NCBI GenBank assembly: GCA_963840645.1
Contig: CAWIZL010000004.1
Coordinates: forward strand, 395,470 to 459,469
Direction of reading: 5' to 3'
DNA from: Candidatus Doudnabacteria bacterium
GTDB taxonomy: Bacteria; Patescibacteriota; Doudnabacteria; UBA920; VMFF01
Length of the DNA: 64,000 nucleotides
The notes under the pieces were generated by a model. That model had not been told where the DNA came from. It made no database searches and saw nothing but the letters and a program-made list of their open reading frames with translations. The position numbers and the translations under genes were made by a program. Each line of letters starts with the position of its first letter. Position 1 is the stretch's first letter. Positions 27,583 through 47,832 of this stretch are shown here, in pieces.

Positions 27583-27592
27583 CGTGCACACT

Positions 27593-27796: not shown

Positions 27797-27885
27797 CTCA
27801 CTTAATCCGAAAATGGAAACAATGAAACATCTGTTCTTGAATGTCAAAGTGGCAAAAGAAATTTTTAAGTAGTAGAATGCCTACC

Positions 27886-35390: not shown

Positions 35391-35631
35391 AAACTTTTTC
35401 CTCCTACCTTTTTTCCTCAGCGTACCCATGATGTACTGCTAGGTTACTGAGAGAAAATTGCCACCCCTAGCAGGCAATTTTCCAACCAGCAACCATTAAC
35501 TTATCATTAACTTACTTATAGAGTACTACATTTAATCCTGTTTGTCCAGTCAACGCATTCACTGCTGCCCGACCGACTCCCGCTGCTACCACCGCCAAAT
35601 CAAAAAAGCACACTGCGGTGCCTTTTTGATT

Positions 35632-35810
35632 TGGAGCGGGAGGCCAAAGCTTTTGCTTTGGCACTTCCATTTCGATTTGCTCCGCAAATCAAATAGGTGA
35701 AGGTCGCTTGGCCGTTCGGCCTTCGCTGCCGCTCAGGCACTCCGGCACCGCCTTGCAACTCCAGACTGTGGAACGAGGTTCGAATGGAAATAGCTAAAAT
35801 GCTGCCTTAA
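35632..35810 (+). repeat. orphan tail c1: tRNA-Gly core TGGAGCGGG (35632) separated by a 125-nt insert from the tail LWNEVRMEIAKMLP* (35766-35810)
   Basis: Hairpin plus core at 35601-40, as found left of tRNA-Gly. The tail is ctg tgg aac gag gtt cga atg gaa ata gct aaa atg ctg cct taa. Confidence 0.6.
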
Positions 35811-36599
35811 TTACTTTATTTGGATAGAGCTAATTAAAGCTTCTGTTGGCAGGTCTTCATCGCTTTCACCATACCTTGAATAAGTAACGGTTAGGTAATC
35901 ATTCTTGCCAACTATATAAACCGTAACTTGGTCAGAGTCCCCATTGCCTGCACTAACCTGGGGTAATTGTATAATTGCAAAGGCCTGTTTTCCGTTTAAC
36001 TGGAAATCTGCCAAAACTTCCAAATTATTATTCAAGGAGCCTGTACCACCAGGGAATCTGTCAGTGCCAGTTATCTGTCCTTCCATCCCGTCCTGAAAAT
36101 TTGTATTAGAATAATACTGGATATTGACCACAGGTCCTGAATCTTGTTCTTGCAAATGTATTAAATTGTTGGAACTCCACTGGCTATTATCCAAAGACCA
36201 ATATTGAGGAGAGTATTTAAAACTTACTGCTTTATCCGGGCTTATATAAGTTTGCCAAGTCCGAGTGATTGCCGTTAGGGCATCTCCATAAATATTTGGC
36301 AACTCGGGATCACTATCGTAACCAGCAAAACTTAGTACTGGAACATTATTTGGCATTATCCATACACCGCTACGATTTGCCCCACCGGGACCGTATAAAT
36401 AACATTGCAGGCCGTGAGTGCCCGTGACAGAGCCACCGGCTCCGTAAGATTGAATGCTATGAAAATCACAAGGCTGGCCAACAGCTATTGTGCTTGTTGC
36501 AGACTTTGTAGACACGGGATTGATTGGGGATGGTTTTTTACTATTACATCCAGCGGCTAACAAAACGACAATTGGGAATGCAACTAATAATTTTTTCAT
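35811..36599 (-). CDS. lipoprotein
   Basis: MKKLLVAFPIVVLLAAGCNSKK, with a lipobox. Confidence 0.7.
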   Translation of the reverse strand: MKKLLVAFPIVVLLAAGCNSKKPSPINPVSTKSATSTIAVGQPCDFHSIQSYGAGGSVTGTHGLQCYLYGPGGANRSGVWIMPNNVPVLSFAGYDSDPELPNIYGDALTAITRTWQTYISPDKAVSFKYSPQYWSLDNSQWSSNNLIHLQEQDSGPVVNIQYYSNTNFQDGMEGQITGTDRFPGGTGSLNNNLEVLADFQLNGKQAFAIIQLPQVSAGNGDSDQVTVYIVGKNDYLTVTYSRYGESDEDLPTEALISSIQIK

Positions 36600-36612
36600 A
36601 AGCTGTTTGTAA

Positions 36613-37679
36613 CTTGGTTTCAATAGTCTAGCGCAACGAGGTGATATGCTCACCTCGTATGAACACACCAAACTACAGGCGTCTCTCCGGCCGTGAACGG
36701 GAGGAGATCAGCAGGGGCTTGGCGGCTGGTTCTTCCCGAGCGGACATCGCACTCCAGCTCGGCAGGAGCACGAGCACGGTTGCCCGAGAGGTTGCGGGCA
36801 ACAGCGGCGCCAGCGGGTACCGGGCGTTCTCGGCTGGGCAGCGTGCGCGGGCTGCGGCGGCAGCCCGCAGGGGTGGGATCCGCCGCCTCGACCGTGAGCC
36901 GCGGCTCCGCGCGTACGTGGTCGCGGGGCTGCGGAAGCGGTGGTCGCCGCGGGAGGTCGTCAGGCGGATGAAAATGGAGTATGCTGCTGACAGCAGTATG
37001 CGCATCTCCCACGAAGCCATCTACCAGTACATCTACGTCTTGCCGCGGGGCAGCCTGAAACAGGAGCTGGTCTCGGCGCTGCGCCGCGAGCACGCCTACC
37101 GCAGGAAGACCGGCGGCAAGGGGCGGCCCGGGGAAGCGCGCGGCAGGATAGCCGGGATGCTCTCCATCGAGGAGCGCCCAGCCGAGGCTGCCGACCGAAC
37201 CGTGCCAGGCCACTGGGAGGGCGACCTGATCCTGGGGAGGCACAAGCGGTCTGCCCTCGGCACGCTCGTGGAGCGCACCACGCGGTACACGATCCTCGTG
37301 CCGCTCGGCCGCCAGAAAGATGCCGCCAGCGTACGCCGGGCGTACGCGCGAGCTTTCCGCTCGGTGCCGCAGGAGCTGGCGAAGACGCTCACGTACGACC
37401 AGGGCAAGGAGATGTCCCAGCACGCGAGGTTCACCGTTGCCACGGGCATCCAGGTCTACTTCGCACACCCGGCATCCCCGTGGGAGCGGGGCACGAACGA
37501 GAACACGAACGGGCTCATCCGGCAGTACTTCCCGAAGGGCACCGAGTTCGACAAGGTCTCCACGCGGGAGGTCAAGCGGGTGCAGCGGCAGCTGAACGAC
37601 CGGCCGAGGGCGGCGCTAAGCTTCTACAAGCCAGACGAAATCTTTAACCGACTCGTTGCGCTAAATGTTTGAAACCAAG
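36613..37679 (+). mobile_element. IS30-family insertion sequence, strongly GC-rich relative to its surroundings
   Basis: Terminal inverted repeats cttggtttcaatagtctagcgcaacgag (36613-36640) and ctcgttgcgctaaatgtttgaaaccaag (37652-37679). Single transposase ORF. Confidence 0.85.
36659..37672 (+). CDS. IS30 family transposase
   Basis: N-terminal HTH-like region. DDE region HWEGDLI...TLTYDQGKEM...YFAHPASPWERGTNENTNGLIRQYFPKG. Confidence 0.9.
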   Translation: MNTPNYRRLSGREREEISRGLAAGSSRADIALQLGRSTSTVAREVAGNSGASGYRAFSAGQRARAAAAARRGGIRRLDREPRLRAYVVAGLRKRWSPREVVRRMKMEYAADSSMRISHEAIYQYIYVLPRGSLKQELVSALRREHAYRRKTGGKGRPGEARGRIAGMLSIEERPAEAADRTVPGHWEGDLILGRHKRSALGTLVERTTRYTILVPLGRQKDAASVRRAYARAFRSVPQELAKTLTYDQGKEMSQHARFTVATGIQVYFAHPASPWERGTNENTNGLIRQYFPKGTEFDKVSTREVKRVQRQLNDRPRAALSFYKPDEIFNRLVALNV

Positions 37680-37718
37680 AATTAAAAGTGTTCTTAGTCA
37701 ATTGTGGTTACCGAGTTA

Positions 37719-37794
37719 TGGAGCGGGCTGTGGAACGAGGTTCGAAGGGAGATAGCTAAGAATTCTACTTTTCAAACAGGCTAACGTACTCGAA
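37719..37794 (+). repeat. orphan tail c2: TGGAGCGGG plus [18 protein letters not shown]
   Basis: tgg agc ggg ctg tgg aac gag gtt cga agg gag ata gct aag aat tct ... taa. Confidence 0.7.
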
Positions 37795-38896
37795 CAGCTC
37801 GAAGGATCTATTACGTGAGTACCCTGTTTTTTCCTTTAGAATACCCTTACGCTCAAACTCGCCCACCAAACGCGTAGCCGTAACGAAAGCAACGCCCAAA
37901 TTTTCAGCAATTTGATTGAGGCTCATGATGGGCTGTGAAAAAAGAGCCACGAGAAATACCTGACCCAGCTCAGCGCGCTTACCCATTTCTAATATTTTTT
38001 TGCCGTAACGTTCCCGAAGCATGACAATCTTCTCGAGGGTCGTCTTCCCCTTTGTAGCTGTTTCAATGATACCAGACAGAAAAAACCTGATCCATTGTTC
38101 AATGTCGTTTGACGCACGCGCAACGGTGAGCGCATCGTAGTATGACCCCTTGTTTCGCTCAAAAAAATCAGAAAGGTACAGAGTTGGCTTCTTGAGTACG
38201 CCTGCATCTACAAGCTGGAGCGTGATGAGCAGGCGGCCGGTTCTCCCGTTGCCATCGAGGAATGGGTGAATCGTTTCAAACTGGTAGTGGCTCATGGCCA
38301 TTTTGATGAGCAGGGGGATCTCAAGCTGCTTGCTGTGCCAAAATCTTTCTAGGTCGGAAAGAAGCTCGGCTAGCTCATTTGGATGCGGGGGAACAAAAAC
38401 AGCATCTTTCAAGCTTGACCCGCCAATCCAGTTTTGGCTCGTTCGAACTTCGCCCGGCATCTTGCGCTCACCTCGAACGCTCGTGAGCAGCACCTTGTGG
38501 GCATCCTTGAGCAGCCGCATTGAGAGAGGCAGCTTGCTGAGATTTTTGATTGATTGGTTAATTGCAGCCACGTAGTTCTGCAAGCTCTTTCCAGTCATCA
38601 CGTCGTTCTGGGTTCACGTCTTCTCTAGACAAGAGAGCTTCGTCAATTCTCGTCTTTGTACCCTCAATACGGCTCGATGTGGTCGCCTCTTTTGTAATGT
38701 GCATGCGGATAAAGTAATCTATATCTGGCACGAGGGTCGAGTAAGCATTCAGTTCACCCAACAGGCGCATTGCCTCACCGAGGAGCACGTTGATCTTTGG
38801 ATCTTGCCAAACAAAAAGTTTGTTGATCGGCAGTGGGCTGAAGCTCTTGTACTCAAACTGTTGCTTGTAGGAACCTGCTTTGAAAGCTGTTGGCAT
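37765..38896 (-). pseudogene. Fic family protein, split by a frameshift near 38596-38612
   Basis: N-terminal ORF 38558..38896 and C-terminal ORF 37765..38601 carrying the Fic motif [12 protein letters not shown]. The junction reads ..EDVNPE / [13 protein letters not shown]. Confidence 0.85.
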
Positions 38897-38991
38897 AAGT
38901 GTAAATATAAAAATCTATATTTACACATTAGCACACTAAGTGAAAACAAGCAAAACCATACTTTCACTTAATCCAATGTGATTATTAATAG

Positions 38992-39085
38992 CCTTACGGT
39001 GCAACAAAAAACACCAATGTTTAGTTGGTGTTTTTTGCTGGAGCGGGCTGTGGAGCGAGGTTCGAAGGGAAATAATTAAGAATAT
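38992..39085 (+). repeat. copy of the tRNA-Gly downstream flank (38992-39038) plus orphan tail c3 (TGGAGCGGG plus LWSEVRREIIKN...)
   Basis: ccttacggtgcaacaaaaaacaccaa is identical to 47711-47736. A hairpin follows, then tgg agc ggg ctg tgg agc gag gtt cga agg gaa ata att aag aat. Confidence 0.7.
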
Positions 39086-39102
39086 TGGTGTTTACCAAAA
39101 TA

Positions 39103-39858
39103 CTAACGGAGCTGCTCTTGGTGATTCCCCTCAAAAATTGGGTGGACACTCTTGACCATGTAGCCACCTTTTTCCAGCAATAGCTCATAAACCATGTTCT
39201 TGCGCTCAAGGACGACCATCCACCCATACTTGGCTGCTTCTTCGTACAACGCAGCGTTCGGATTGAAAGCAATGGGGTGGTCAACAACTGATAAAAAAGA
39301 ACTGTCGCGGTGCGTGTCGCCAACGCCAATGCTATCTTCCATGGTCAACCCCCGTTCTGCGACAATGTCGGCAAGCAGCTTCTCCTTGTTCTTGTTTGTT
39401 TGGCTCAACCGCTTGCCAGTGTACAAGCCATTGTTCACCTCAAGCTCAGAAGATGTCACGACGTCAAAACCAAGCGCGTATGCAAATGGCTCTACGATAT
39501 CCTTGATTGAACCAGAAATAGCAATGAGCGTGCGCCCTTCCTTCTTTAATTTTTCAATTAAGTTGATCGTGTACGCGTAGCAGTATTTTCCTTTGACGGC
39601 GAGAACCTCGTGGACAACGTTTGCCATTTGCGCAGGACTGACCTGGGGCGTAATTTTTTCAAACACTTCGAGGATAGCCTTGTTGTATGCCCAGTAGCTC
39701 TCTGTGGAACCACGCTCCTTCCACACTTTCTTGGCTTCCTGCACCTGCTTGCGCTCTGGTTCAAGGTTAAGCTTTTCAATTAGTGCTTCGGCAACATCGA
39801 AGGTCAACGTGTGCGTATACACTGTACCGTCTAGATCAAAAATGGCAAATTTATTCAT
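39103..39858 (-). CDS. HAD-superfamily hydrolase (subfamily IB-like)
   Basis: MNKFAIFDLDGTVY (DxDxT), ...ISGS..., ...GVGDTHRD. Confidence 0.85.
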   Translation of the reverse strand: MNKFAIFDLDGTVYTHTLTFDVAEALIEKLNLEPERKQVQEAKKVWKERGSTESYWAYNKAILEVFEKITPQVSPAQMANVVHEVLAVKGKYCYAYTINLIEKLKKEGRTLIAISGSIKDIVEPFAYALGFDVVTSSELEVNNGLYTGKRLSQTNKNKEKLLADIVAERGLTMEDSIGVGDTHRDSSFLSVVDHPIAFNPNAALYEEAAKYGWMVVLERKNMVYELLLEKGGYMVKSVHPIFEGNHQEQLR

Positions 39859-39877
39859 TGTGGTTCCGTTAGTGCAG

Positions 39878-40486
39878 TTAATTGTGCAGGACTTTCAGTT
39901 GATCTCGGCGCACCAGAAGAAGCAGGACAAAACCAGCATTGATAACTGCAACCACGGCAGGGAAAAGTGCAGTTGTTAAGTTAAACGAAGCAAGCGCGAG
40001 AAGGCTCAAGCCATACTTCAGCGTACTGAGCACGTATAAGGTTGCTGTTTCTCCGTTCGGTCGTAAGTATCCTTTGCGGTAGGTTGGAGCAAAAGCTAAA
40101 ACATCTGCGAGGGTAATTACAATAACGGCTCCAAGAGGTTCTTTCGTCAGAAGCCAGAGCACGATAGCTGCGAGCGTTCCACCAAAGCAGACCCAGTCAA
40201 ACTTAGTAAGGCCTCTTTCGCCTCTTTTGACGGCGAGCATGGCAATTCCAAAAATACAAACTGCGCTCACGGCAGATGTCCACGCTCCTGCACCGCCACC
40301 TTTAGCAATCTGGGTAAAGAACGAGACTGCATTCAGGAGACCAAAACCTAGCCACGTAAAGAGGTGCGGCTTCGTTGTGCCTCGAAAGATGTCCCGGTAG
40401 TAGGGAAGGTATCCGATAAGACCAATGAAGATGGCGGCGAGTCCCAGTATGACGTGGTAACTGTAGATCATATATTCTACATACAT
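39878..40486 (-). CDS. multi-pass membrane protein
   Basis: 202-aa ORF with about 6 hydrophobic segments. Confidence 0.6.
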   Translation of the reverse strand: MYVEYMIYSYHVILGLAAIFIGLIGYLPYYRDIFRGTTKPHLFTWLGFGLLNAVSFFTQIAKGGGAGAWTSAVSAVCIFGIAMLAVKRGERGLTKFDWVCFGGTLAAIVLWLLTKEPLGAVIVITLADVLAFAPTYRKGYLRPNGETATLYVLSTLKYGLSLLALASFNLTTALFPAVVAVINAGFVLLLLVRRDQLKVLHN

Positions 40487-40501
40487 TCTACCACACCAAC
40501 T

Positions 40502-40573
40502 TATTGGAATGAGGTTCGAAGTGAGATAGTTAAGAATTCTGGTTTAGTTTATAGCCTTTCCCGTAAAGATTGA
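40502..40573 (+). repeat. orphan tail c4: YWNEVRSEIVKNSGLVYSLSRKD* (no Gly core)
   Basis: tat tgg aat gag gtt cga agt gag ata gtt aag aat tct ... Confidence 0.6.
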
Positions 40574-40659
40574 ACATAAAAAATCCGCCAGGCTTGAGCA
40601 ACCTGGCGGGAACAGACTTAGCTATTGGCAACACTAACCTTCACTGTATTCTTCTGAGA

Positions 40660-41040
40660 CTACGCCGCCGTCTCCACGGCAGGCTCTTCACCCTCCAGCA
40701 GGCCGAGCTTCCTGAGAAATTCAATAGCTACCTCAGTGACCTCGTAGCTCTTCCACGTGATTTGGCCGCGGTGCTCATCACTGTTGTCAAAGCTCTTCCA
40801 GTAAACCTCGATTGAGCCTTTGGCTATGGCCTCACGCACCAATTTGGCCATTGCCCGCTTCTCGGCTGCATCAGTGCGTTTGCCTGGAATGCGCTCGAAA
40901 GCCTCCTCGATGGCTTCATCGCAGACGAGTCCATCGCACCGCTCGAACAGGTCGCGCTCGTCCTTTGCGAGAAAGAACCTGGAAGCTCCGATCATCGTGT
41001 GCCGAAGCACAAACAATTTTAAAGCCGCCTTTGCTGCCAT
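40660..41040 (-). CDS. hypothetical protein
   Basis: Trimmed to MAAKAALKLFVLRHTMIG... with SD GGGGGA. Terminator hairpin ccgccagg...cctggcgg downstream. Confidence 0.5.
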   Translation of the reverse strand: MAAKAALKLFVLRHTMIGASRFFLAKDERDLFERCDGLVCDEAIEEAFERIPGKRTDAAEKRAMAKLVREAIAKGSIEVYWKSFDNSDEHRGQITWKSYEVTEVAIEFLRKLGLLEGEEPAVETAA

Positions 41041-41196
41041 TGGAATTCCCCCTTGAAAATCTACCCTTACACGAGCCAGCACTTTTAGGTCTCTGGATTC
41101 AGACCGAGTTTCCCCGCCCCAGCAAGCCAGCAATTGGTTTCCTAGGGTAGAGGCTCGTGCAACTAGACACGAGCCAGGTTTGAAACCTGCAAGAAG

Positions 41197-41586
41197 CTAC
41201 CGCTTCGCCAATCTTACAGGTCTGAGGAATGCGGCGACTGTCGGATTCAGAGACTTAGCACCTGTGTGGTCAACCTCAAACCTGACGCTATCCCCTTTGT
41301 GCAAGACGGCGAACTCGCCCCAGTGGGCTGAGTAATCGTCCACGGTTATGTCTCTCAAGATGAGCGACCTGTCTGTGCCGTGCACGAAGCCAAAAGTTAC
41401 CGTGCCATTCTCCTCGTAGTGCCGCGAGACGACAAACCAGGTACTCGCCGCCATTTCATCTGCCTGCTTAGATGACTTGGCGATGTACTGCCCAATGTTC
41501 GCACTTCGAACTTTGACACCGATGGCCACCAGAGAACTGACTGCCAGGATAATGGAAATACCTACAGCCAGCGGCTTCTTCTTCAT
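41197..41586 (-). CDS. membrane-anchored hypothetical protein
   Basis: MKKKPLAVGISIILAVSSLVAIGV..., with a signal or anchor segment. Confidence 0.55.
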   Translation of the reverse strand: MKKKPLAVGISIILAVSSLVAIGVKVRSANIGQYIAKSSKQADEMAASTWFVVSRHYEENGTVTFGFVHGTDRSLILRDITVDDYSAHWGEFAVLHKGDSVRFEVDHTGAKSLNPTVAAFLRPVRLAKR

Positions 41587-41706
41587 TGTTATTCCTCCTC
41601 AATTCACGGACAAAAAAGAGTAGCACGTTCCTTGCTTTTGGTCAATGCGTATTGGATAATATTTAAAGACTTTCTACCTAGTAAAAAATGAAGAAGTTTT
41701 TACATA

Positions 41707-42069
41707 TTATCTCAGATAAAACTCAAGCCTGATGCCGTCGGGGTCGTCGAACCACAGGAACTCTCGCTTGCTGTACCTGTCAATTTGGATGCCGCTGTTT
41801 TTTATGGCCGCACCCTGTAGCTTCTTGGCGTACCGCTTCAGCTCAACCACGCTCTTCACCCTGAACGCGAGGTGGTTCAGGCCAATGTTGTGCTTGTCAA
41901 AGCTGCGGGCACTCTTCTTGTACGGGTTGGTCAGGAACAGCTTCGTATCGCCGAGCTGCCAGCTGGCATCCCACTCGCTGACTTTCGACTTTTCCAAAAA
42001 AGATTGGTAGAATGCCGTGCTCTTCTTGAGGTCTTTGACTGATATGACAATGTGGTCGAGTGAGGGCAT
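41707..42069 (-). CDS. VOC family (glyoxalase/bleomycin-resistance fold) protein
   Basis: MPSLDHIVISVKDLKKSTAFYQ...GLNHLAFRV... Confidence 0.8.
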   Translation of the reverse strand: MPSLDHIVISVKDLKKSTAFYQSFLEKSKVSEWDASWQLGDTKLFLTNPYKKSARSFDKHNIGLNHLAFRVKSVVELKRYAKKLQGAAIKNSGIQIDRYSKREFLWFDDPDGIRLEFYLR

Positions 42070-42082
42070 TTGTGGGTTTTAA

Positions 42083-42640
42083 CTAAATGGACTTAAGGTA
42101 CTTCTTCACCTTCACGAGAGCCTTCTTGCGCATAGACGTTTTCTCTTTCTCTATCTCGCCCATCTCTGCCCACGTCTGGGTGTACCCTTTGGGGATGAAG
42201 ATGGGATCCCAGCCAAACGTTGTTTTGCCTTTTGGTTCTGTACTGATAGAGCCAGACGTACTGCCAGTAAATATTTTCGCAGTCTTCCCGTCGTATATGC
42301 AGTACGCTATCTCAGCTATTGCGCTCTTGTCCTTGTAATTTCTGAGGAGATCGCAAATGCCCTCGTTGCCCAAGGACTTCAGGAATCACTTGATGAGTGA
42401 GCCTGGTAAGCCGTTCATTGCGCCAAATTTTAGTGAAACGTCTTCCACCATCACGGGTTCCCGAATGATCTGGTACGCTGTCCTAGCCTTGTGCTCGACC
42501 ACCTCGCGCACGTCGAGCGACTGTATCTCTGGTAAATCAATGGAGCGCTGACGAATAGACACGTCGAAATACTCGCTCAGATACCTTGCCTTTGCGGGAT
42601 TTCCTGTTACGAATGTTAAATTTGTTAAATTCTTAGACAT
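42083..42640 (-). pseudogene. rdgB: non-canonical purine NTP pyrophosphatase (ITPase, Ham1/RdgB family) interrupted by an in-frame TGA at 42386-42388
   Basis: FVTGNPAKA...VMVEDVSLKFGAMNGLPGSLIK-TGA-FLKSLGNEGICDLL...FGWDPIF. It aligns with human ITPA ...[24 protein letters not shown], so the stop sits on the conserved Trp. Confidence 0.85.
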
Positions 42641-42681
42641 GGCTAGATTCCTTAGCTTAATCTACTTAGATTGTACCACGA

Positions 42682-42783
42682 GACAAACTTGGAACGCTTT
42701 GCGACGTTAGAACCTATTGGCAGACTACGGATGAGAGGTTTTACATACCAAAATTGTCCCTGGAGAAGGCTTTGGTCAATTAA
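42682..42783 (+). repeat. orphan tail c6 (long variant): ..LCDVRTYWQTTDERFYIPKLSLEKALVN*
   Basis: Homologous at the peptide level to c5 (LVHDVRTFWRSTDERFFIPMLSLESVELA*). Confidence 0.6.
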
Positions 42784-42861
42784 AAATCCTTCTCAACTCA
42801 CCAGAGACTGGTGAACTCAGAAGGATTGCGGGACGTTCGTACTGAACGCCCCGCTTTGTTG

Positions 42862-43053
42862 CTACAAATCCGCTCGGAGGCGGAAGATGAGCCAGATGTA
42901 GGCCGCGACGGGGAGAACGAGGATGGTTGCCACCACCCACAGAACCTTCCCCCACCAGCGCGGCGCTCTCCACACCATGCGACCCGTGAAGAGCATCGCG
43001 CACAGCGTGGCGATGCACGCTGCTGTGAACCAGAGAACCTTTTCGTCAACCAT
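42862..43053 (-). CDS. small two-TM membrane protein
   Basis: 63-aa ORF, last gene of the GC-rich operon. SD AAGGAGG upstream. Confidence 0.5.
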   Translation of the reverse strand: MVDEKVLWFTAACIATLCAMLFTGRMVWRAPRWWGKVLWVVATILVLPVAAYIWLIFRLRADL

Positions 43054-43087
43054 AAACCTCCTTGAGAGAATTGGAATGCTTGAACGC

Positions 43088-43591
43088 TCACTTGCCGATG
43101 ATCCACGGGCGCAGCGCGGTACACTTGCCGATGGTGCTGTACAGGATCTCGACGCCTGGAGTCCGCAGCAGCTCCTCTGCCTCGTACTGCTTTCTGTCCG
43201 CAGTCAAGTGGATGAACCCCAGCTGCTTCTCGATCCGCCGCTTCATCGCTGCGTCGAGCAACGAGGCCGCCTTACACGTTTCGGCAAAACCGGCGTGACC
43301 CTGCTCAACGGCGTTGGCGAAGTTCTGGATGATGTCGTGCGACTCGTTGCGGATGCTCGACTGGAGCGCCCGCTCGGCTTCCCCAGCGTCGAGAATGTAA
43401 CGCTCCCGCTCGACCTCCCGCTTCTCGACCGTCCACCGGACGTTGGCGAGCTCGTCAATCTTCTTGTCGGCGAGCTGCTCGTTGGCGAGAAACGCGGTGG
43501 CTGCCAGAGCGGCAGGCGTTGCGGGTTTCGTTTGCTGGGCGAACGACGTGCCCAGTACGAGCAAGGTAAAGGCGATGAGTTTCTGCGTCAT
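43088..43591 (-). CDS. secreted hypothetical protein
   Basis: MTQKLIAFTLLVLGTSFAQQ, a signal peptide. Confidence 0.55.
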   Translation of the reverse strand: MTQKLIAFTLLVLGTSFAQQTKPATPAALAATAFLANEQLADKKIDELANVRWTVEKREVERERYILDAGEAERALQSSIRNESHDIIQNFANAVEQGHAGFAETCKAASLLDAAMKRRIEKQLGFIHLTADRKQYEAEELLRTPGVEILYSTIGKCTALRPWIIGK

Positions 43592-43712
43592 GGTCTTGCA
43601 CACTCCACTTTTCCCTGGTTACTCCCAGAGAACACAGAGACCTAGAAAAAGTAGGTAGCTGAATACTCTGGAAGTACGCCTAGTCTGGTTCAATAAACAA
43701 GCCTCCTTTATG

Positions 43713-43774
43713 TTCTCACCTCAGCAAACCACGGAGTGATTTCCTAAGGTGAGTGCAGAAGTTTTGGCTTCTGC
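43713..43774 (-). promoter_or_regulatory. conserved intergenic hairpin motif L2 plus GC hairpin
   Basis: ttctcacctcagcaaaccacggagtgatttcctaaggtgag, then gcagaag..cttctgc. Confidence 0.65.
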
Positions 43775-43812
43775 CCCAGCAAAGCCCTGCTGGGTGGGGA
43801 ATAAACTGTTCG

Positions 43813-44208
43813 CTAGTGCATTCGCAGTGGCACCAGGCTCTCGTACCAGTTTTTTAGGTAAGCCTGCACCTCGGGGTGGTCCCCGATGGCCTGCTCGATA
43901 AGCTGGGCCTGCTGCCTCATGCCCTTGGTGAAGGCGACCGTGACCAGCTCCTCGAGTGCGGCGCGGACGGAGTCCTCGCTCGCGTTCGCCATTGCCTCGA
44001 GCGCCTTGAATCCGTCCTGCACGCTAGGGTTTTGGACGAACTCGATGCTGCCGGTATTGATCAAGCCGATGGCGCTCTCGCTTGAGCCATCGTCTTCGTT
44101 GCCGTCGAGGTCTCGCTGCACCTCCTCGATCGTCTCCATGGGGGTGACGACGCCGTAGTGCTCTGCCTTGCCGCCATCCAGGTCCTGCCGTACGAATGCA
44201 ATCCTCAT
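43813..44208 (-). CDS. acidic hypothetical protein
   Basis: Trimmed to MRIAFVRQDLDGGKAEHYG... with SD AAGGAGAGG. Confidence 0.55.
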   Translation of the reverse strand: MRIAFVRQDLDGGKAEHYGVVTPMETIEEVQRDLDGNEDDGSSESAIGLINTGSIEFVQNPSVQDGFKALEAMANASEDSVRAALEELVTVAFTKGMRQQAQLIEQAIGDHPEVQAYLKNWYESLVPLRMH

Positions 44209-44239
44209 TACGTTCCTCTCCTTTGAATTGAAGTTTTGT

Positions 44240-44306
44240 TTCCTCACCTCAATAAACCAAGATTGATTTGCTGAGGTGAGGCTCGCAGGGATTGGTGTCT
44301 GCGAGC
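44240..44306 (-). promoter_or_regulatory. conserved intergenic hairpin motif L3 plus GC hairpin
   Basis: ttcctcacctcaataaaccaagattgatttgctgaggtgag, then gctcgcag..ctgcgagc. Confidence 0.65.
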
Positions 44307-44320
44307 TTGTTGTATGTGGC

Positions 44321-44590
44321 TTACGTAGCCACGCCGTCTTCCTCGATGGTGGCGTTGTTCCGCCTCCAGGCATCCTCGGCCATGCCCGTCTGCGTCCCCT
44401 TGAGGACGAGCCAGGTCGGGCCAGAGTCGCTGACGGGGCACGGGATGCGCTCCATCTCGTGCCTGCCGGGGGCAATCACGGGAAAGGCTTCTTCCTCGTT
44501 CTCCCAGCGAGTGCCCGCTGCGAGGCGCTCCCGCAGAGCCTTGCCGTTTGTCAGGTGCCAGCTGTCGGTGATGACCACAAAGATGCTCAT
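44321..44590 (-). CDS. hypothetical protein
   Basis: Trimmed to MSIFVVITDSWHLTNGK... with SD AAAGGAGAA. Confidence 0.5.
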   Translation of the reverse strand: MSIFVVITDSWHLTNGKALRERLAAGTRWENEEEAFPVIAPGRHEMERIPCPVSDSGPTWLVLKGTQTGMAEDAWRRNNATIEEDGVAT

Positions 44591-44638
44591 GCTGTTCGTT
44601 CTCCTTTGGATTGTAGGTACCGTCGATTGATTTTTGTG

Positions 44639-44700
44639 TTCTCGCCTCAACAAACCACGAAGTGATTTCCTGAGGTGAGTCGCCAACGTTGAGGTTGGCG
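44639..44700 (-). promoter_or_regulatory. conserved intergenic hairpin motif L4 plus GC hairpin
   Basis: ttctcgcctcaacaaaccacgaagtgatttcctgaggtgag, then cgccaac..gttggcg. Confidence 0.65.
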
Positions 44701-44750
44701 TTCAGCGTAGCCCCGCTGAACAGGAATGCCGGGTCGCCGTGCATGGTCTA

Positions 44751-45278
44751 CTACCGCTTGTCGAACTGCTCTTGCAAGAAATCGTCGAGGGTTGGCAGTC
44801 CCTCGCTGGCAACTTGGTCGGCCAATTCTTCGTCGAGCGCACCGAGCACGCCTTCGATGATGTGTGCCGTGTACTCTCCTGCGGTTGCAATGCCATCCTC
44901 GCACGTCGGGTTGGTCTCGGGTCTCGACACGAACCCAGGGAAGTAGGGCATCATGGTGGCCTTGAAGTTGTAGGCCACGTCCGCGTCTGAGCTGCCCTCG
45001 AGTGGGGTTGTGACCACCACCCGCTTACCAGTCTGCCGCAGCTCCCTGATCTTGCTCGAGACGCTGCTGTCGCAGGACGGGCAGGTCAGGACGATTACCA
45101 GAACCACGCCAGCGTCCTCCGCTGAGGATGCCGCTTCGTGCTCCGCAGCAACGCGTTTCCTGATGTCGTAGAGCGCGTTCATGATGCACGGTGCCATTTC
45201 TTGGCAGGCACACCTGTCAGCGTAGCCGCCGTATAAACCGTCGTTCGATCCGATAAGTACCACGTGCACCTTTGACAT
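44751..45278 (-). CDS. hypothetical protein
   Basis: MSKVHVVLIGSNDGLYGGYADRC..., 175 aa, SD AAGGAGG. Confidence 0.55.
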   Translation of the reverse strand: MSKVHVVLIGSNDGLYGGYADRCACQEMAPCIMNALYDIRKRVAAEHEAASSAEDAGVVLVIVLTCPSCDSSVSSKIRELRQTGKRVVVTTPLEGSSDADVAYNFKATMMPYFPGFVSRPETNPTCEDGIATAGEYTAHIIEGVLGALDEELADQVASEGLPTLDDFLQEQFDKR

Positions 45279-45317
45279 TTTTCATGCCTCCTTGTGTCGA
45301 GAACCCTTGGAGTTGCT

Positions 45318-45381
45318 TTCTCGCCTCAATGAACCAAGATTGATTTGCTGAGGTGAGGCCGCGACGTTGTTCTGTCGCGGC
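45318..45381 (-). promoter_or_regulatory. conserved intergenic hairpin motif L5 plus GC hairpin
   Basis: ttctcgcctcaatgaaccaagattgatttgctgaggtgag, then gccgcgac..gtcgcggc. Confidence 0.65.
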
Positions 45382-45394
45382 TGGTCGTGTGTTG

Positions 45395-45811
45395 CTAGTA
45401 CTCGCGCTCCATGTGCAGGGAGCCGTCGTAGTGGTTGCGATCGTTCCCGCCAACCTCGTCGTCATCGTTGCAGTCCTCGCAGAGCGAGAAACCGTAGGTG
45501 ACGTTCGGCTCGCGCACGCCCTTGAACCACATGTGCTTGCCGCACTTGCAGGTCAGGCGGTACGCGGGACTGTTGAGGACGGCCTTACGGTCGTACCCGC
45601 CGTCCAGCTCGTCGCCGTCAGGTCCGCTGAAGCGAGAGAACATCTCCACTGGGGTGCCCGTGTTGCGGTTGGTGGCGATGAACTCATCGGCACGATCGGC
45701 TGAATCCAAGTTAATGTCCTGCTGGTCGGCTTCCCCAGGGTGAATCCGGAAAGTCCAACCAACAAAAATCCCCGTTACAACTTCCTGTGCGGTGGCGGTA
45801 CTAGTTCGCAT
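45395..45811 (-). CDS. hypothetical protein with Cys-pair (zinc-ribbon-like) motifs
   Basis: 138 aa, ...CKCGKHMWF...CEDCNDDD.... SD GGAGA. First gene of the operon. Confidence 0.55.
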   Translation of the reverse strand: MRTSTATAQEVVTGIFVGWTFRIHPGEADQQDINLDSADRADEFIATNRNTGTPVEMFSRFSGPDGDELDGGYDRKAVLNSPAYRLTCKCGKHMWFKGVREPNVTYGFSLCEDCNDDDEVGGNDRNHYDGSLHMEREY

Positions 45812-45832
45812 TACATTTTCTCCTTCTGGTTG

Positions 45833-45891
45833 TAGAAATATCGCTATTTCTAGCTACCAAGAGTGTAGCACATTTCCTTGCTATTTGTCAA
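45833..45891 (-). promoter_or_regulatory. operon promoter with a perfect palindrome in the 5' UTR
   Basis: Minus strand reads TTGACA (45891-45886), ~18 nt, TACACT. Palindrome TAGAAATA-tcgc-TATTTCTA at 45833-45852. Confidence 0.5.
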
Positions 45892-45973
45892 TAGGTATTG
45901 TGTAATATATTAAGAGGTTCTAACTTGTCCTAAGGTGTATTAAAAAAGTACTGCAAACATTGATGATTTGAAA

Positions 45974-46072
45974 TGGAGCGGGTTAGTGCACGACGTTAGA
46001 ACCTTTTGGCGGAGTACGGACGAACGTTTCTTTATCCCGATGCTGTCCTTGGAATCAGTCGAGTTAGCCTAA
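45974..46072 (+). repeat. orphan tail c5 (long variant): TGGAGCGGG plus LVHDVRTFWRSTDERFFIPMLSLESVELA*
   Basis: tgg agc ggg tta gtg cac gac gtt aga acc ttt tgg cgg ... Confidence 0.65.
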
Positions 46073-46089
46073 TAACCCCAAAATAGGCT

Positions 46090-46118
46090 TTTGACACGAT
46101 GGACAATTTAGGTTAGAA
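46090..46118 (+). promoter_or_regulatory. sigma70-like promoter
   Basis: TTGACA, 17 nt, TAGAAT. Confidence 0.65.
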
Positions 46119-46150
46119 TATATTGTTTTTACGCTACGAATGGAGGAAGT

Positions 46151-46444
46151 ATGAGAAGACCTATTTATAAAGTTGGCGATGAAGTAACGGTGGTGAAAGA
46201 AGCTGGCATGCTGGGCTTTCTTGTTGCTGGCAAACTCATGCAGGAACCCCCGAGCCACAACACCTTAGTCCACCTGCTCCCGAAGGAAAACTACACGCAC
46301 GGCAGCCTGAGGACGTTCTGCCAGGTTCGAGTTCCGCCGGGAAAAGGGCGGCCGGAGATGAGCTACGCACTGTACGGGTGGTGCAATTCTCTCTACGAGC
46401 TGGAGATGAACCAGAAATTCGAAATTGCTGCTCTGCCCGCATGA
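46151..46444 (+). CDS. small hypothetical protein
   Basis: 97 aa, SD GGAGGA. Has its own promoter and terminator. Confidence 0.6.
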   Translation: MRRPIYKVGDEVTVVKEAGMLGFLVAGKLMQEPPSHNTLVHLLPKENYTHGSLRTFCQVRVPPGKGRPEMSYALYGWCNSLYELEMNQKFEIAALPA

Positions 46445-46447
46445 CAA

Positions 46448-46501
46448 GAGCCCACGCCACGCAACGTTCCGACGTTCGTGCGGTGTGGGCTCTATTTTTT
46501 T
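46448..46501 (+). terminator. intrinsic terminator
   Basis: gagcccacgccacg...gtgcggtgtgggctc followed by a T-run. Confidence 0.65.
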
Positions 46502-46657
46502 ATGTCTGACTGTCGCTGGAGGCTGCAAACGTGGCAACACCACTATCTAAGATAACGATCGACCTTGATAAAAATACAGGCGTCCGTCCGGTAATAATCC
46601 GGGCGAACGCCTAACTGGTACTCTTGTGAAGGGTTAGAACCGACCGAGCACGAGTGC

Positions 46658-47508
46658 TTAGGTCTGTTTGAAAATCGCCAGGGCATCTTCGTCCGTCATC
46701 GCTTGACCGTTGGAAAAGATAGCCTCTCCATCGGTCGTGTAAATGATTGTCGGGTAAGGATCTCTCTCCTCGATCTCCGCCGACATAGAAGCCGCCTCCC
46801 GTGCTCCAGTCAACGATTCCGCCATAACCTTGCGGCCAGCTGGGGTGAACAGCCGGTCTTCCTGGGCTACTGTCATTGCAACTGGAGCACCCCGCTGGGC
46901 ATGCAGGTAGACTCGCAGAAAGAGCTCGTAGTTATCAACGTCCTCAGTCGGCCTCTCCCCACAAAGACGAACCAGGTTCAATTCACCTGGACAGGCTCCA
47001 CCCGATCCATCGTCGAGGTACAGAATGCCACGGCTCTCCCCAGGCTGCTCTCCGCGTACGAGACAGCGTGGGAGGAGACTATCATTGCCAATGAGAGTCT
47101 GAGCCAATTGCCTGCCCGTCTGTCTCAGATTCGCCGCCGCCATGGTGTATTCATCACGAACTTTCAGGATAGAATCGACCGTGATATGAGCGGGCACCCA
47201 CCCCGCTGTGGTTTCCTGAAGCGCAAAGAGCAGACGTTCCAAGAAGGCACGGAGCGGGTATGCCTCAAGCGTGGGATAGTGTGGCCCGATGCAGGCCTGC
47301 CACTAGGGCCGTAAGACCAGACAACAAGCTGCTGGTCATTGTTGTGCTGCAAGTAAACGGCATCGAACAGCTTTTGCTTCTTGCCGTTCGGTGGCGGGTT
47401 CGTGCTTGCCTTGTTCACGATTGCCTGCGTGGTATCTACGACCGCCGCTCGCATAGCCATCAGCTTGCGGAGGTATTCTGTATACGTAACGTTCGCTATC
47501 TGAGACAT
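46658..47508 (-). pseudogene. hypothetical protein, apparent 1-nt frameshift near 47285-47295
   Basis: MSQIANVTYTEYLRKLMAMR...QQLVVWSYGP (ORF 47164..47565 frame), then WQACIGPHYPTLEAYPLRAFLERLLFALQETTAGW... (ORF 46658..47242 frame). Confidence 0.45.
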
Positions 47509-47757
47509 GTCCGTGATGACCTCCAAATCGAATTTGACAACGTGCCTTCTGGCACACACCTTCACACATGATCCTCCGTGGTACTAAAGAATCTTGCGGG
47601 AAAGGTTTTGGTGACGATGTTCGAGACCAAAATGCTTCCCACAAAATTACTCTGTATTATACAAAAATTAGTAGAAAAATCAAGGTGATTGGGCTGCTAG
47701 GTTCGACTCCCCTTACGGTGCAACAAAAAACACCAAGTAAATACTGGTGATTCTTTT

Positions 47758-47832
47758 TGGAGCGGGTAGCGGGAGTCGGACCCGCGTCATCAGTTTGGAA
47801 AACTGAGATAATAGCCGTTATACGATACCCGC
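47758..47832 (-). tRNA. tRNA-Gly(TCC)
   Basis: GCGGGTATCGTATAACGGCTATTATCTCAGTTTTCCAAACTGATGACGCGGGTCCGACTCCCGCTACCCGCTCCA. Close to my recollection of E. coli glyT. The T loop TCCGACT is slightly atypical. Confidence 0.88.

Follow-up and report, generated by a model that had tools for sequence, protein, structure and literature searches.

The 12 kb beside the tRNA-Gly gene of the window (the whole stretch of 64,000 nt analyzed here) form an island anchored at this tRNA gene, and the enzymes that built it belong to a family of large serine recombinases (LSRs) that is widespread in Patescibacteria. The analysis establishes the identity and geometry of its sites; recombinase remnants are absent, and the arrangement recurs in other genomes. 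We consider it rather likely that the units are non-autonomous cassettes that owe their movement to LSRs encoded at other sites, which would act in trans or carry them along as passengers.

The recombinase family and its attachment sites

By domain architecture, recombinases A and B of the window are LSRs, with the SPbeta and A118 serine integrases as the nearest solved structures, and their family is common across Patescibacteria. Most of 120 LSR homologs end in W..DSN-like peptides read from tRNA antisense, and about eight retain intact tails like DVRT...TDRYIYVP, of the same family as tails 5 and 6 of the window. Of 80 loci taken from genome assemblies, 59 have an LSR whose 3′ end overlaps a tRNA gene convergent with it, with many tRNA specificities, and full LSR elements carry a rolling-circle Rep. 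The attB is the 3′ end of a tRNA gene, with the T-arm antisense as the attB-type recognition motif and with the crossover within the three bases formed by the discriminator and the first two bases of the acceptor stem. The attP sits in the last codons of the LSR's own gene; its right half-site (P′) therefore encodes the C-terminal tail W-D/N-E-V-R/G-T/R.. and holds GTTNGAAC 5 bp farther out than the T-loop motif. Because of this position of attP, integration makes the LSR gene end inside the tRNA antisense and leaves its C-terminal tail stranded at the opposite end, as in elements A and B (Table 1).

The geometry of the tails was compared across genomes. Among 69 same-strand matches to the tail motif, 66 lie upstream of an LSR, at a median of 5.5 kb from the LSR end; five matches lie on the opposite strand, and 0.56 Mb of shuffled sequence gives one. 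A single register is common to 51 of 53 tail-tRNA pairs from dozens of genomes, and the core that tail and tRNA have in common invariably spans the positions from the discriminator to +2. The motif GTTNGAAC is located at +18..+25 in the tails, whereas the T-loop antisense is at +13..+20 in the tRNAs, a 5-bp shift that corresponds to the attP versus attB geometry described for serine integrases (PMC3783163). Since the tail motif is 5 bp farther from the crossover than the T-loop, the six tails of the island are attL-type left-end junctions.

Peptide-level conservation of the tails had been proposed from the window, and it extends to a larger sample. The reading frame is open for at least 7 codons in 77 of 77 tails, TGA is found at the variable codon in none of them (0/77), and in 57 of 59 cases the frame of the tail is that of the LSR. 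Between tails 5 and 6, nine codons differ synonymously and five non-synonymously. This protein-level constraint indicates that the tails once belonged to LSR genes. The left half-sites (the left arms of the junctions) show little or no conservation and no inverted copy of the tail motif was found in the LSR 3′ end, thus the tail sites are asymmetric.

Structure of the array at tRNA-Gly

The original prediction, that the repeats are C-terminal tails left stranded by tRNA-targeting recombinases of the kind of A and B, that they divide the island into cassette-like units, and that no recombinase body precedes any tail, was confirmed in all three points. The six same-strand tails were recovered with the predicted positions and translations, far above chance, and a tblastn search of 35.4-47.9 kb for a recombinase body gave no match better than E 0.01. 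Four tails are of type 1 (LWNEVRREIAKN; 35766, 37728, 39048 and 40502) and two of type 2 (DVRT.W..TDERF.IP.LSLE; 42702 and 45991). The pattern GASGTTMGAAS was observed five times (0.20 expected). At 14.6 bits or more, a 17-nt weight matrix matches on the + strand of the 64 kb solely the array tails and the left ends of A (19501) and B (23030), tail 5 (9.5 bits) being the exception.

Table 1. Coordinates of elements A and B and of the features of the tRNA-Gly array
Feature	Position	Strand	Description
Element A	19501..22930	+	Reference case
Left junction of A	19501		Terminator hairpin, then TGGTGGA, then tail encoding RLWDEVRGEIAKINSPTY and stop
Cargo of A	20178-21212	-	One lipoprotein gene
LSR A	21383-22963		Reads into antisense of tRNA-Lys (22922-22997)
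Element B	23030..29345	+	Reference case
Left junction of B	23030		TGGTGCGC and tail encoding LWDEVGR...
Cargo of B	23143-27371		
LSR B	27841-29403		Reads into antisense of tRNA-Arg(tcg) (29338-29414)
Outermost Gly 3′-end copy	35596..35640	+	TGGAGCGGG at 35632; terminator hairpin before; no tail attached
Non-coding insert, 125 nt	35641..35765		Three minus-strand hairpins, z = -3.2
Tail 1, type 1	35766..35810	+	LWNEVRMEIAKMLP and stop; P′ half-site; AACTCCAGA replaces Gly core
Cassette 1	35811..37718	-	Lipoprotein gene 35811-36671, minus
IS30-family transposase gene	36641-37672	+	Inserted in cassette 1
Junction 2	37719..37763	+	Exact Gly core TGGAGCGGG and tail 2 (LWNEVRREIAKN)
Cassette 2 cargo	37765..38896	-	Fic/DOC protein, two overlapping ORFs: Fic_N 38558-38896; Fic + HTH 37765-38601
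Cassette 2 right-end module	38992..39038		CCTTACGGTGCAACAAAAAACACC and two-way terminator hairpin; abuts core
Junction 3	39039..39083	+	Exact Gly core and tail 3 (LWSEVRREIIKN)
Cargo after tail 3	39103..40486	-	HAD hydrolase 39103-39858; 202-aa membrane protein 39878-40486
Tail 4	40502..40537	+	YWNEVRSEIVKN; without Gly core
Cargo after tail 4	40585..42640	-	Terminator 40585-40609; orphan genes 40660-41133, 41197-41586
Glyoxalase/VOC, after tail 4	41707-42069	-	
Ham1/RdgB, after tail 4	42083-42373, 42386-42640	-	Two ORFs
Tail 5, type 2	42697..42764	+	..CDVRTYWQTTDERFYIPKLSLE; without Gly core
Cargo block after tail 5	42776..45811	-	G+C higher, 0.54-0.59; 4-6 ORFs, gene count uncertain
Junction 6	45974..46060	+	Exact Gly core and tail 6 (type 2, LVHDVRTFWRSTDERFFIPMLSLE)
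Cassette 6 cargo	46637..47526	-	One ~300-aa gene, split by frameshift
Cassette 6 right-end module	47711..47757		Same family as 38992-39038
tRNA-Gly(tcc)	47758..47832	-	Integration target; 3′ end faces array

The antisense of the tRNA-Gly 3′ end, TGGAGCGGG, is found five times, always on the + strand (35632, 37719, 39039, 45974 and 47758), against 0.44 expected, and at least five copies were reached in 0 of 100 shuffles. In antisense, the core of tRNA-Gly reads TGGA-GC-GGG, with the crossover most probably at the central GC, and the T-arm antisense contains the attB-type motif 5 bp nearer the crossover than in the tails. Four tail sites had been thought to carry this core; those at 37719, 39039 and 45974 do, whereas the copy at 35632 is split from tail 1 by the 125-nt insert. 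The three core-bearing junctions are exact recombination products at the local tRNA-Gly, with base-exact joints to the tRNA core. The tails at 35766, 40502 and 42702 are older junctions that were carried in, because they have no Gly core; tails 4 and 5 are internal, and tail 4 lies inside a composite unit (39039-45973). The array represents four successive insertions, of which the newest is presumably nearest the tRNA. The outermost copy of the Gly 3′ end is probably the original tRNA trailer and the island's left border, and small inserts comparable to the one next to it flank tRNA 3′ ends at other loci.

The units share one plan: they open with a tail, carry one to a few genes on the tRNA strand, and end on the right directly against TGGAGC. 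The right ends of units 2 and 4 are a shared terminator module, which is also common to the cassettes of the array L118 described below, and the copy at 47711..47757 is now the trailer and terminator of tRNA-Gly. The G+C content varies from cassette to cassette. Cassettes 5 and 6 have promoter-like sites at their gene-start ends, and terminator-like hairpins follow tRNA-Gly and cassette 4. The two orphan genes proposed for the last unit are instead one gene split by a frameshift, and Fic and Ham1/RdgB are likewise each split into two ORFs. The GC-rich block is present as described, with four to six genes in place of the definite six of an operon; none of its ORFs has a Pfam match, and two pairs of 47-nt hairpin-like repeats separate them. 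Tail 6 matches the C-terminus of an intact-tail LSR (P0060) and a tail at 11144 of L118 (reverse complement).

Cassettes in other genomes and their proposed mobilization

Two to four tails precede a single LSR in 13 of the 80 loci, which gives 17 LSR-less cassettes in 13 other genomes, most of them with a single gene that lies on the tRNA strand. The 23 LSR-less cassettes of the window and these genomes (26.6 kb) are free of LSR and Rep remnants, although their tails are in as good a state as the tails of elements with an LSR. A second array without an LSR, L118, consists of five single-gene cassettes and is located at tRNA-Cys. Its right ends consist of the same terminator and TGGAGC as in the window, each of its eight junctions is exact at the first core base, and its tails combine three post-crossover trinucleotides (GGG, TCC or GGC). 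One of its genes, P0121, is 71% identical in amino acids and 76% in nucleotides to the cassette-6 gene but is linked to a different tail. Among genomes, cargo, tails and tRNA cores reassort, and the recurring layout points to an exchange of cassettes between tRNA genes.

That mobilization took place, by which route and through which LSR, we infer. In trans, an LSR would recombine free cassette circles. As a passenger, a cassette would be taken along when an LSR element beside the tRNA uses a tail lying farther out for its excision, and it would be left behind when that element later departs alone. Such co-excision fits the data as well as movement in trans. The conserved LSR 3′-end sequence (P arm) is absent from the cassette right ends, so a free circle would present an attL-like site and not a canonical attP; recombination between attL and attB is not carried out by canonical serine integrases (PMC3783163). 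A search for excised circles, empty sites and strain variants of the window array found none. LSRs A and B, which had been named as possible movers, both carry type-1 tails and therefore could serve cassettes 1-4 at most; for cassettes 5 and 6, no LSR with a type-2 tail was found in the 64-kb window. With three split cargo genes and one IS30-carrying cassette the array could be a graveyard, and the frameshifts could also be assembly errors. The non-autonomous-cassette reading leaves the origin of the first recombinase-less cassette unexplained.

Under plain decay, autonomous LSR elements (with Rep) would have integrated in tandem at tRNA-Gly and later lost their recombinase modules by deletion, leaving immobile relics. 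Genomes of Patescibacteria are streamlined, which would favor deletion; tandem arrays that keep an inner LSR do occur (L019, L054, L062 and L117), the coding constraint places the tails in former LSR genes, and the IS30 insertion and split genes are decay within the array. Nevertheless, deletions would have had to end exactly at the first core base at all Gly junctions and at the eight junctions of L118, and to remove every piece of LSR and Rep from 23 cassettes whose tails are well preserved. The right ends are a conserved terminator module rather than random sequence, the same cargo gene is found with another tail at another tRNA, and inner junctions in the 80 loci are LSR-less in 17 cases versus LSR-retaining in three. 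The repeated integration with systematic recombinase loss that was offered at the outset is thus disfavored as ordinary decay; it is less likely than non-autonomous cassettes, and we regard it as improbable.

A strict integron-like platform would use the tRNA gene as a fixed capture site, with circles of terminator, core and tail as normal substrates of an LSR in trans and with irrelevant left half-sites. Single-gene cassettes in one orientation with both ends conserved, the asymmetry of the sites, and the three trinucleotides within one array argue for it, as do the tandem arrays, which imply that a tRNA was targeted again though its left flank was already the LSR 3′ end of a resident element. 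Against it, serine integrases are not known to perform the attL-like by attB-like pairing that it needs (PMC3783163), and circles were not seen. The tails are coding-constrained, which would be needless for a never-translated site, and they do not fold into hairpins; moreover, the promoter-like sites of cassettes 5 and 6 mean that a common platform promoter is not required. We regard this model as doubtful, if somewhat less so than decay. The architecture of the integron-like movement originally suggested does fit, and its single-gene cassettes recur elsewhere, whereas the attC-like fold and the tyrosine enzyme do not apply. Spread of the tails independently of serine recombinases, by local duplication, gene conversion, IS30 or another mobile element, might account for tails being more alike within one array than between genomes, and one IS30 is present. 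It is very improbable and already contradicted by the fixed register of tail to tRNA core; in addition, tails are in frame with LSRs and LSRs with intact tails exist, the mainly synonymous differences between tails 5 and 6 are unlike recent duplication, and the tail motif was not found as inverted repeats at cassette ends.

Comparison with known systems

The LSRs share domain architecture, a short common core around the crossover, and a recognition motif 5 bp nearer the crossover in attB than in attP with phage serine integrases (A118/LI, phiC31, Bxb1, SPbeta; PMC3783163). They differ in having an attP that overlaps the stop region of the integrase, and an attB that is the tRNA T-arm, so that many tRNA species are targets; in addition, left half-sites are little or not conserved, and a tRNA flanked on the left by a resident element's end is used again. 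Filamentous phages of the phiRSM type reportedly (Askora et al., 2011) integrate at tRNA-Ser with a resolvase-like small serine recombinase. Like the LSR elements, they combine a serine recombinase, a tRNA 3′-end target and a G2P-type rolling-circle Rep; we know of no description of tail exchange or recombinase-less cassette arrays in them. Archaeal integrases of the SSV1 type also have attP within the integrase gene, a tRNA target, and different integrated and free proteins. They are tyrosine recombinases whose integration splits the gene into two large parts, whereas here a serine recombinase exchanges its last ~7-30 codons.

As in integrons, an array of cassettes lies beside a fixed insertion point; most hold a single gene, all have the same orientation, each is bounded by a recombination site, and cassettes and sites reassort. 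Membership was rejected, given a serine recombinase and sites without attC-like folding into imperfect palindromes; an IntI-type tyrosine recombinase is also absent, as are attI and Pc beside an integrase gene, the insertion point is a tRNA gene, and the array has the promoter-like sites and terminator-like hairpins noted above.

The array resembles tycheposon islands and SCC composite islands. In tRNA tandem arrays including Prochlorococcus tycheposons, repeated integration at one tRNA likewise displaces older units outward, with partial tRNA copies at the joints and with cargo and degenerate elements (PMC7192596; bioRxiv 10.1101/2020.12.28.424599). Tyrosine recombinases are present in 910 of 937 tycheposons and tens of tRNA bases are duplicated (PMC7192596; bioRxiv 10.1101/2020.12.28.424599), whereas the island involves an LSR, a shared core of 3-9 bases only, a conserved coding tail at the joint, and recombinase-less units without integrase fragments. 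SCC composite islands and pseudo-SCC (PMC6243372) share insertion driven by an LSR, with the 3′ end of a single conserved gene as its site, tandem units bounded by direct repeats of the target core, and recombinase-less units beside recombinase-bearing ones. The target there is rlmH and not a tRNA gene; here, attP lies inside the recombinase gene, so integration changes the enzyme's C-terminus, the cassettes are far smaller and often of one gene, full elements carry a rolling-circle Rep, and the hosts are Patescibacteria. Recombinase-less SCC units such as ACME are reported to be mobilized by Ccr in trans.

The tRNA-Gly array of the window

Six same-strand tails, i.e., stranded C-terminal coding ends of large serine recombinases (LSRs), occur between 35 and 48 kb of the window together with antisense copies of the 3′ end of tRNA-Gly(tcc), in line with the original prediction. 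The antisense sequence TGGAGCGGG is present in five copies, compared with 0.44 expected by chance in the window, and forms direct repeats oriented like the tRNA, as tandem tRNA-linked arrays require. Four of these copies had been described as tail sites; all four exist, but only three are joined to tails (junctions 2, 3, and 6). Every one of the six tails is an attL-type junction. Junctions 2, 3, and 6 carry the exact Gly core, the antisense of the tRNA 3′ end, and therefore formed at this tRNA-Gly; tails 1, 4, and 5 differ from it at the core positions and therefore formed elsewhere and were carried in.

No recombinase body precedes the tails, as had been noted: tblastn with six diverse recombinases as queries was empty in 35.4-47.9 kb, and Pfam scans of the array genes detected no recombinase besides the IS30 transposase, so the units between the tails (cassettes) are without an integrase of their own. 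They hold one to six genes each, with the cargo in one orientation, and their G+C content spans 0.47 to 0.59. The genes are those first described, except that Fic and Ham1 each consist of two ORFs, and the “two orphans” of the last unit are instead one frameshifted gene of ~300 aa. The three cargo genes that lie in two frames, Fic (37765-38896), Ham1/RdgB (42083-42640), and the cassette-6 gene (46637-47526), are either true pseudogenes or homopolymer errors of the long-read assembly.

Units 2 and 4 share a right-end module, CCTTACGGTGCAACAAAAAACACC with a two-way terminator hairpin, immediately 5′ of TGGAGC, and the copy adjoining tRNA-Gly now functions as that tRNA’s terminator. Promoter-like sites, as consensus matches only, were found at the gene-start ends of cassettes 5 and 6. 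A 55-nt stretch with a TTGACA-like box is 78% identical between an intergenic region of cassette 4 (41628-41682) and the gene-start end of cassette 5 (45874-45928), and looks like a shared promoter module. The G+C-rich block contains two 47-nt intergenic repeat pairs between ORFs, 90-91% identical and with a CCTCA...TGAGG hairpin, which may be a common leader or processing signal.

Coordinates of the features in the window and in related loci (L-numbers denote LSR-related loci from other genomes or contigs; rc, reverse complement)
Feature	Sequence	Coordinates	Strand	Remark
tRNA-Gly(tcc)	window	47758-47832	minus	3′ end faces lower coordinates
TGGAGCGGG copies	window	35632, 37719, 39039, 45974, 47758	all +	all inside the region first predicted
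Type-1 tails, CTGTGGAACGAGGTTCGAAGGGAGATAGCTAAGAAT	window	35766, 37728, 39048, 40502	+	sequence repeats; encode LWNEVRREIAKN
Type-2 tails	window	42702, 45991	+	sequence repeats; encode DVRT.W..TDERF.IP.LSLE
Insertion 1 of four	window	35632/35766 to 37718
Insertion 2 of four	window	37719 to 39038
Insertion 3 of four	window	39039 to 45973		composite, two old tails inside
Insertion 4 of four	window	45974 to 47757
47-nt repeat pairs	window	43707-43754 / 44633-44680; 44236-44282 / 45313-45359		sequence repeats
Element A left end	window	19501	+	terminator hairpin, TGGTGGA (tRNA-Lys 3′ end), tail encoding RLWDEVRGEIAKINSPTY and stop
Element B left end	window	23030	+	TGGTGCGC (tRNA-Arg 3′ end), then LWDEVGR...
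Conserved ~315-nt stretches, group 1	L034; L039; L044; L045	3965-4284; 7534-7852; 1778-2091; 8024-8341
Conserved ~315-nt stretches, group 2	L017; L019; L033	2772-3088; 7047-7360; 5723-6036
tRNA-Cys(gca) genes	L118 rc	4911-4985; 14063-14136	+; -
Small inserts	window	47938-48014; 35641-35765
Small inserts	L034; L032; L080	7910-8074; 11446-11613 and 5958; about 1875-2024
Small inserts	L118 rc	11942-12053; 13456-13568

A tRNA-targeting recombinase family and its tails

Two elements of the window retain their recombinases: element A (3.4 kb, one lipoprotein gene and the LSR) and element B (6.3 kb). Both LSRs match PF00239, PF07508, and PF13408 (resolvase catalytic, recombinase, and zinc-ribbon domains), the catalytic-region residues R10 and S12 are invariant among 39 homologues, and their closest relatives in the PDB are the serine integrases of SPbeta and A118. 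The LSR A gene runs into the antisense of a convergent tRNA-Lys and the LSR B gene into tRNA-Arg, and the left ends of both elements are built like the orphan sites of the tRNA-Gly array. The lipoproteins encoded in cassette 1 and in element A, once supposed to be homologous, match in their signal peptides only, and this homology was dropped.

A protein search returned 868 LSR relatives at E ≤ 1e-20, and those with a source name are mostly from Patescibacteria. Among the best 120 of the 868, most end in peptides like W-L-G-R-D-S-N-P, as encoded by a tRNA acceptor stem and T-arm in antisense, and ~8 end in tails like WQDVVKDVRTKIQQTDRYIYVPSLDL, the family of window tails 5 and 6. We fetched 80 LSR loci from genome assemblies. 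At 59 of these loci, the end of the LSR gene overlaps a tRNA gene convergent to it, the tRNAs including Gln, Ser, Tyr, Leu, Trp, Ile, Glu, Ala, Pro, Asn, Lys, and Arg. A 17-nt weight matrix for the tail (consensus TGGGAYGAAGTTGGAAC) gave 69 matches on the LSR strand, 66 of these upstream of the LSR, against five on the other strand and one in 0.56 Mb of shuffled sequence. The median distance from the nearest tail to the LSR end, and therefore the size of a typical element, is 5.5 kb. In full elements, a rolling-circle Rep (PF23343, REP_ORF2-G2P type) lies beside the LSR with cargo on the opposite strand. Full-text searches, with their incomplete coverage, returned no description of tRNA-targeting LSRs in Patescibacteria or of an attP inside an integrase’s own stop region.

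Several side observations concern these loci. Many LSR contigs (L007, L017, L018, L024, L025, L030, L031, L035, L040, and L054) stop tens to a few hundred bases from the LSR 3′ end, as assemblers do where the sampled population is polymorphic for a site or contains repeats of it. Stretches of ~315 nt are 86-93% identical between otherwise diverged LSR elements of different genomes, compared with 80-88% across the LSR genes. The idea that LSRs with intact tails are free circles was abandoned, since the examined case (L117) is a tandem chromosomal array with a second LSR missed by the gene caller.

Of 53 tail-tRNA pairs aligned on the discriminator base, 51 fall in one register. Identity always spans the discriminator and the next two bases; its left start varies from -6 to 0, and it ends at +2 in 27/51 pairs. 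Because every pair shares these three bases, the crossover lies within discriminator to +2, and most probably at +1/+2, which would be the GC of the TGGAGC common to the Gly junctions of the window and all junctions of L118, a second LSR-less array. AttP and attB share a short core only, as expected of serine integrases. The tails carry a conserved GTTNGAAC at +18..+25, and the tRNAs a ATTCGAAC-like T-loop antisense at +13..+20. In an A118-like integrase, the zinc-ribbon motif occupies bp 16-24 of attP and bp 11-19 of attB (PMC3783163), and for the right half-sites only, both the 5-bp shift and the distances from the crossover agree with these positions. By the shift and distances, the tail is thus the P′ half-site, which imitates the B′ half-site provided by the tRNA T-arm.

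On the left side, by contrast, the junction arms carry ~0 bits and the two-fold half-site symmetry of serine integrases is lacking. In a 61-site information profile, the LSR 3′ end is conserved only as far as its PKN.D peptide explains, and it lacks an inverted copy of the tail motif. GCTCGAT in LSR A, once taken for such a copy, is not general in this profile and was dropped together with the symmetry argument for the crossover position, leaving the shared cores as the sole basis for its placement. The tail is also not a decayed tRNA fragment: it does not align with tRNA-Gly beyond the 9-nt core, Rfam finds no tRNA there, and the only further sequence in common is a T-loop-like TTCGAA at a shifted position.

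The original prediction had asked whether the reading frame of the tails is conserved in a larger sample, and this is the case. An LSR codon starts with the discriminator in 57/59 cases and the tail motif begins 9 nt later, so the unintegrated LSR reads the tail as W-D/N-E-V-G/R-T-x-L.... The frame is open for at least seven codons in all 77 tails. The variable first base of an NGA codon is T in 0/77, which indicates avoidance of TGA, and the T at a second codon position is retained in 68/77 while adjacent positions vary. Between tails 5 and 6, 14 of 21 codons differ, nine of them synonymously, including AGG vs. CGT. Frame, open reading, TGA avoidance, codon-position pattern, and synonymous changes together show that the tails evolved within recombinase genes. 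Integration swaps the LSR tail for a tRNA-encoded C-terminus; an LSR integrated at tRNA-Gly would stop at once, with W-S-G-stop.

Recombinase-less cassettes in other genomes

In 13/80 loci, a single LSR has two to four tails upstream of it, and every tail follows a core of the same tRNA. These loci yielded 17 LSR-less cassettes of 0.4-2.5 kb, mostly with one gene on the tRNA strand. An inner LSR was retained, fused to the tail of the next element, in 3/80 loci and in L117. The left-arm motifs of L011/L059 and of window units 2 and 4 were rejected as cross-genome motifs, being absent elsewhere among the 80 loci; that of units 2 and 4 was later found in L118, outside this set.

The cassette-6 gene is 71% identical to P0121, a gene on the JGI contig L118, whose 14.6 kb contain no LSR. 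Its reverse complement has eight “terminator hairpin + TGGAGC” junctions, ending at tRNA-Cys(gca), which enclose five single-gene cassettes (296, 218, 138, 129, and 99 aa), and its right-end module belongs to the family of window units 2 and 4. TGGAGC alone is common to the junctions, and tails with differing post-crossover bases stand in one array: TCC follows at three type-2 tails, GGG at one tail 79% identical to window tail 6, and GGCTAA at tRNA-Cys itself, a tail-like site, and two 105-nt inserts. We take these bases to record the different tRNA ends that the tails presumably once matched. The homology between window and L118 (76% nt) covers the gene, its promoter region, and its own terminator, with the tail outside it; the L118 counterpart of window tail 6 is instead found in the following cassette. 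Reassortment has therefore affected cargo, tails, and tRNA targets alike. Two tRNA-Cys(gca) genes in inverted orientation flank a 9-kb region of L118 that has the cassette array at its end.

Searches for proteins identical to HU, LSR B, and the glycosyltransferase beside the array returned no strain variants of the window array. A metagenome scan with the type-1 tail pattern gave 11 matches, mostly unrelated, and a viral-contig scan gave one truncated and one ordinary integrated relative.

Proposed movement of the cassettes and comparison with known systems

Given the nature and geometry of the sites, the exact joints, the lack of LSR debris, and the recurrence and reassortment of cassettes, we infer that each unit is a non-autonomous cassette on which LSRs from elsewhere act. 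The original prediction had also allowed for repeated integration at tRNA-Gly with subsequent loss of the LSRs. Integration in tandem with later deletion of every LSR is possible; partial decay of the array is evident from IS30 and the split cargo genes, although three frameshifts in 12 kb could also be assembly errors. Such decay would need base-exact deletions at every joint and predicts intermediate pseudogenes. None was found in the 23 LSR-less cassettes (26.6 kb, the window plus the 17 others), in which no LSR or Rep fragment was detected at E ≤ 0.1.

Two routes could move non-autonomous cassettes. As passengers, they would be taken along when an LSR element that has integrated beside the tRNA excises from a more distal tail, and dropped when, after reintegration, the element leaves from its own tail. 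This needs the known attL x attR reaction only and would keep the tails under occasional coding selection; the origin of the first LSR-less unit is left unexplained. Alternatively, an LSR acting in trans could excise a tRNA-adjacent cassette as a circle and reinsert it, with right ends that must supply the tRNA’s last bases and terminator. This would account for both the origin of LSR-less units and their conserved right ends. It requires recombination of sites with one good half-site each, which is not known for serine integrases (PMC3783163). The trans route gains some plausibility because the left arms carry no information, and because in tandem integration beside a resident LSR the left arm of the target is already an LSR 3′ end. 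Recombinases A and B, proposed earlier as the movers, have type-1 tails and therefore could serve cassettes 1-4 at most; no LSR with a type-2 tail was found in the window.

Compared with serine integrases in general, the system is alike in enzyme and right half-sites, whereas half-sites there are symmetric. Closest in architecture are SCC composite islands and pseudo-SCC, in which LSRs insert units in tandem where a conserved gene ends (3′ end) and core repeats border the recombinase-less units (PMC6243372). LSR-less units bounded by core repeats are found here as well, but SCC uses Ccr-family recombinases and targets rlmH (orfX) rather than a tRNA gene. Tandem tRNA islands such as tycheposon islands are likewise close, being tRNA-linked with partial tRNA repeats and cargo; tycheposons have a characteristic tyrosine recombinase and replication modules in place of the LSR and REP_ORF2-G2P-type Rep, and each unit of a tandem tRNA array is expected to have its own integrase, unlike those at 35.4-47.9 kb. 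Of the integron-like situation suggested originally, an array of mostly single, promoterless ORFs in one orientation may apply in part: the orientation is uniform, and cassettes have single genes in L118 and most other loci, but the window has one to six genes per unit, and promoter-like sites occur at cassettes 5 and 6. The resemblance does not extend to the enzyme, as IntI is a tyrosine recombinase with adjacent attI and Pc, none of which appeared in the Pfam scans of the array genes, and the recombinases elsewhere in the window are serine recombinases. Nor does it extend to attC, which folds as an imperfect hairpin, whereas the six tails as DNA do not (z-scores -1.25 to +1.30). Mobilization itself is deduced.

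Patescibacteria have tiny genomes, and to our knowledge little is known about how their genes are gained and lost. A widespread LSR family aimed at the universally conserved tRNA T-arm is a potential main route of gene flow, with one-gene cassettes left behind or traded (lipoproteins, Fic, methyltransferases, restriction-type, and membrane proteins). Three properties are unusual for the sites of serine integrases: asymmetry, an attP within the enzyme’s gene, and a C-terminus tied to the integration state. These properties make it testable which parts of a serine integrase site are really required and whether direction depends on the tail, and integrases recognizing a motif of every tRNA gene could be of interest as insertion tools. 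Tentatively, and with doubt outweighing belief, Patescibacteria might possess a serine-recombinase cassette-exchange system that combines three features: a capture site at any tRNA gene that has the crossover bases in common at its antisense 3′ end (TGGAGC in the window and L118), small “terminator + core + tail” cassettes excised and inserted by integrases in trans, and the swap of the integrase C-terminal tail upon integration as a built-in switch of activity or direction. If true, it would be a functional analogue of the integron with another enzyme family and a tRNA as platform.

Other tRNA-like stretches were observed in the window. A stretch of at least 160 nt occurs twice on the minus strand in near-identical form, at 400-560 and, 10.6 kb away, at 10980-11140, and both copies contain a tRNA-like piece that covers Rfam model positions 8-63 only (37 and 29 bits; no ARAGORN call). 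At 30014-30023, within the gene of a repeat-rich 1442-aa surface protein, 10 nt are identical to the 3′ end of tRNA-Arg(ccg) (62584) in antisense, probably by chance because no tail follows them.

Finally, noncoding inserts of 70-170 nt, often G+C-rich, have on one side a repeat of the first 6-21 nt from a tRNA 3′ end and on the other side the next core or the tRNA. Folding is strong in some of them (z = -3.2 and -4.4). The 165-nt insert between LSR and tRNA in L034, across which the reading frame of the LSR is open throughout, is part of either the element or the chromosome. The small inserts may represent an empty cassette, the scar of another integrase, or a part of an element.
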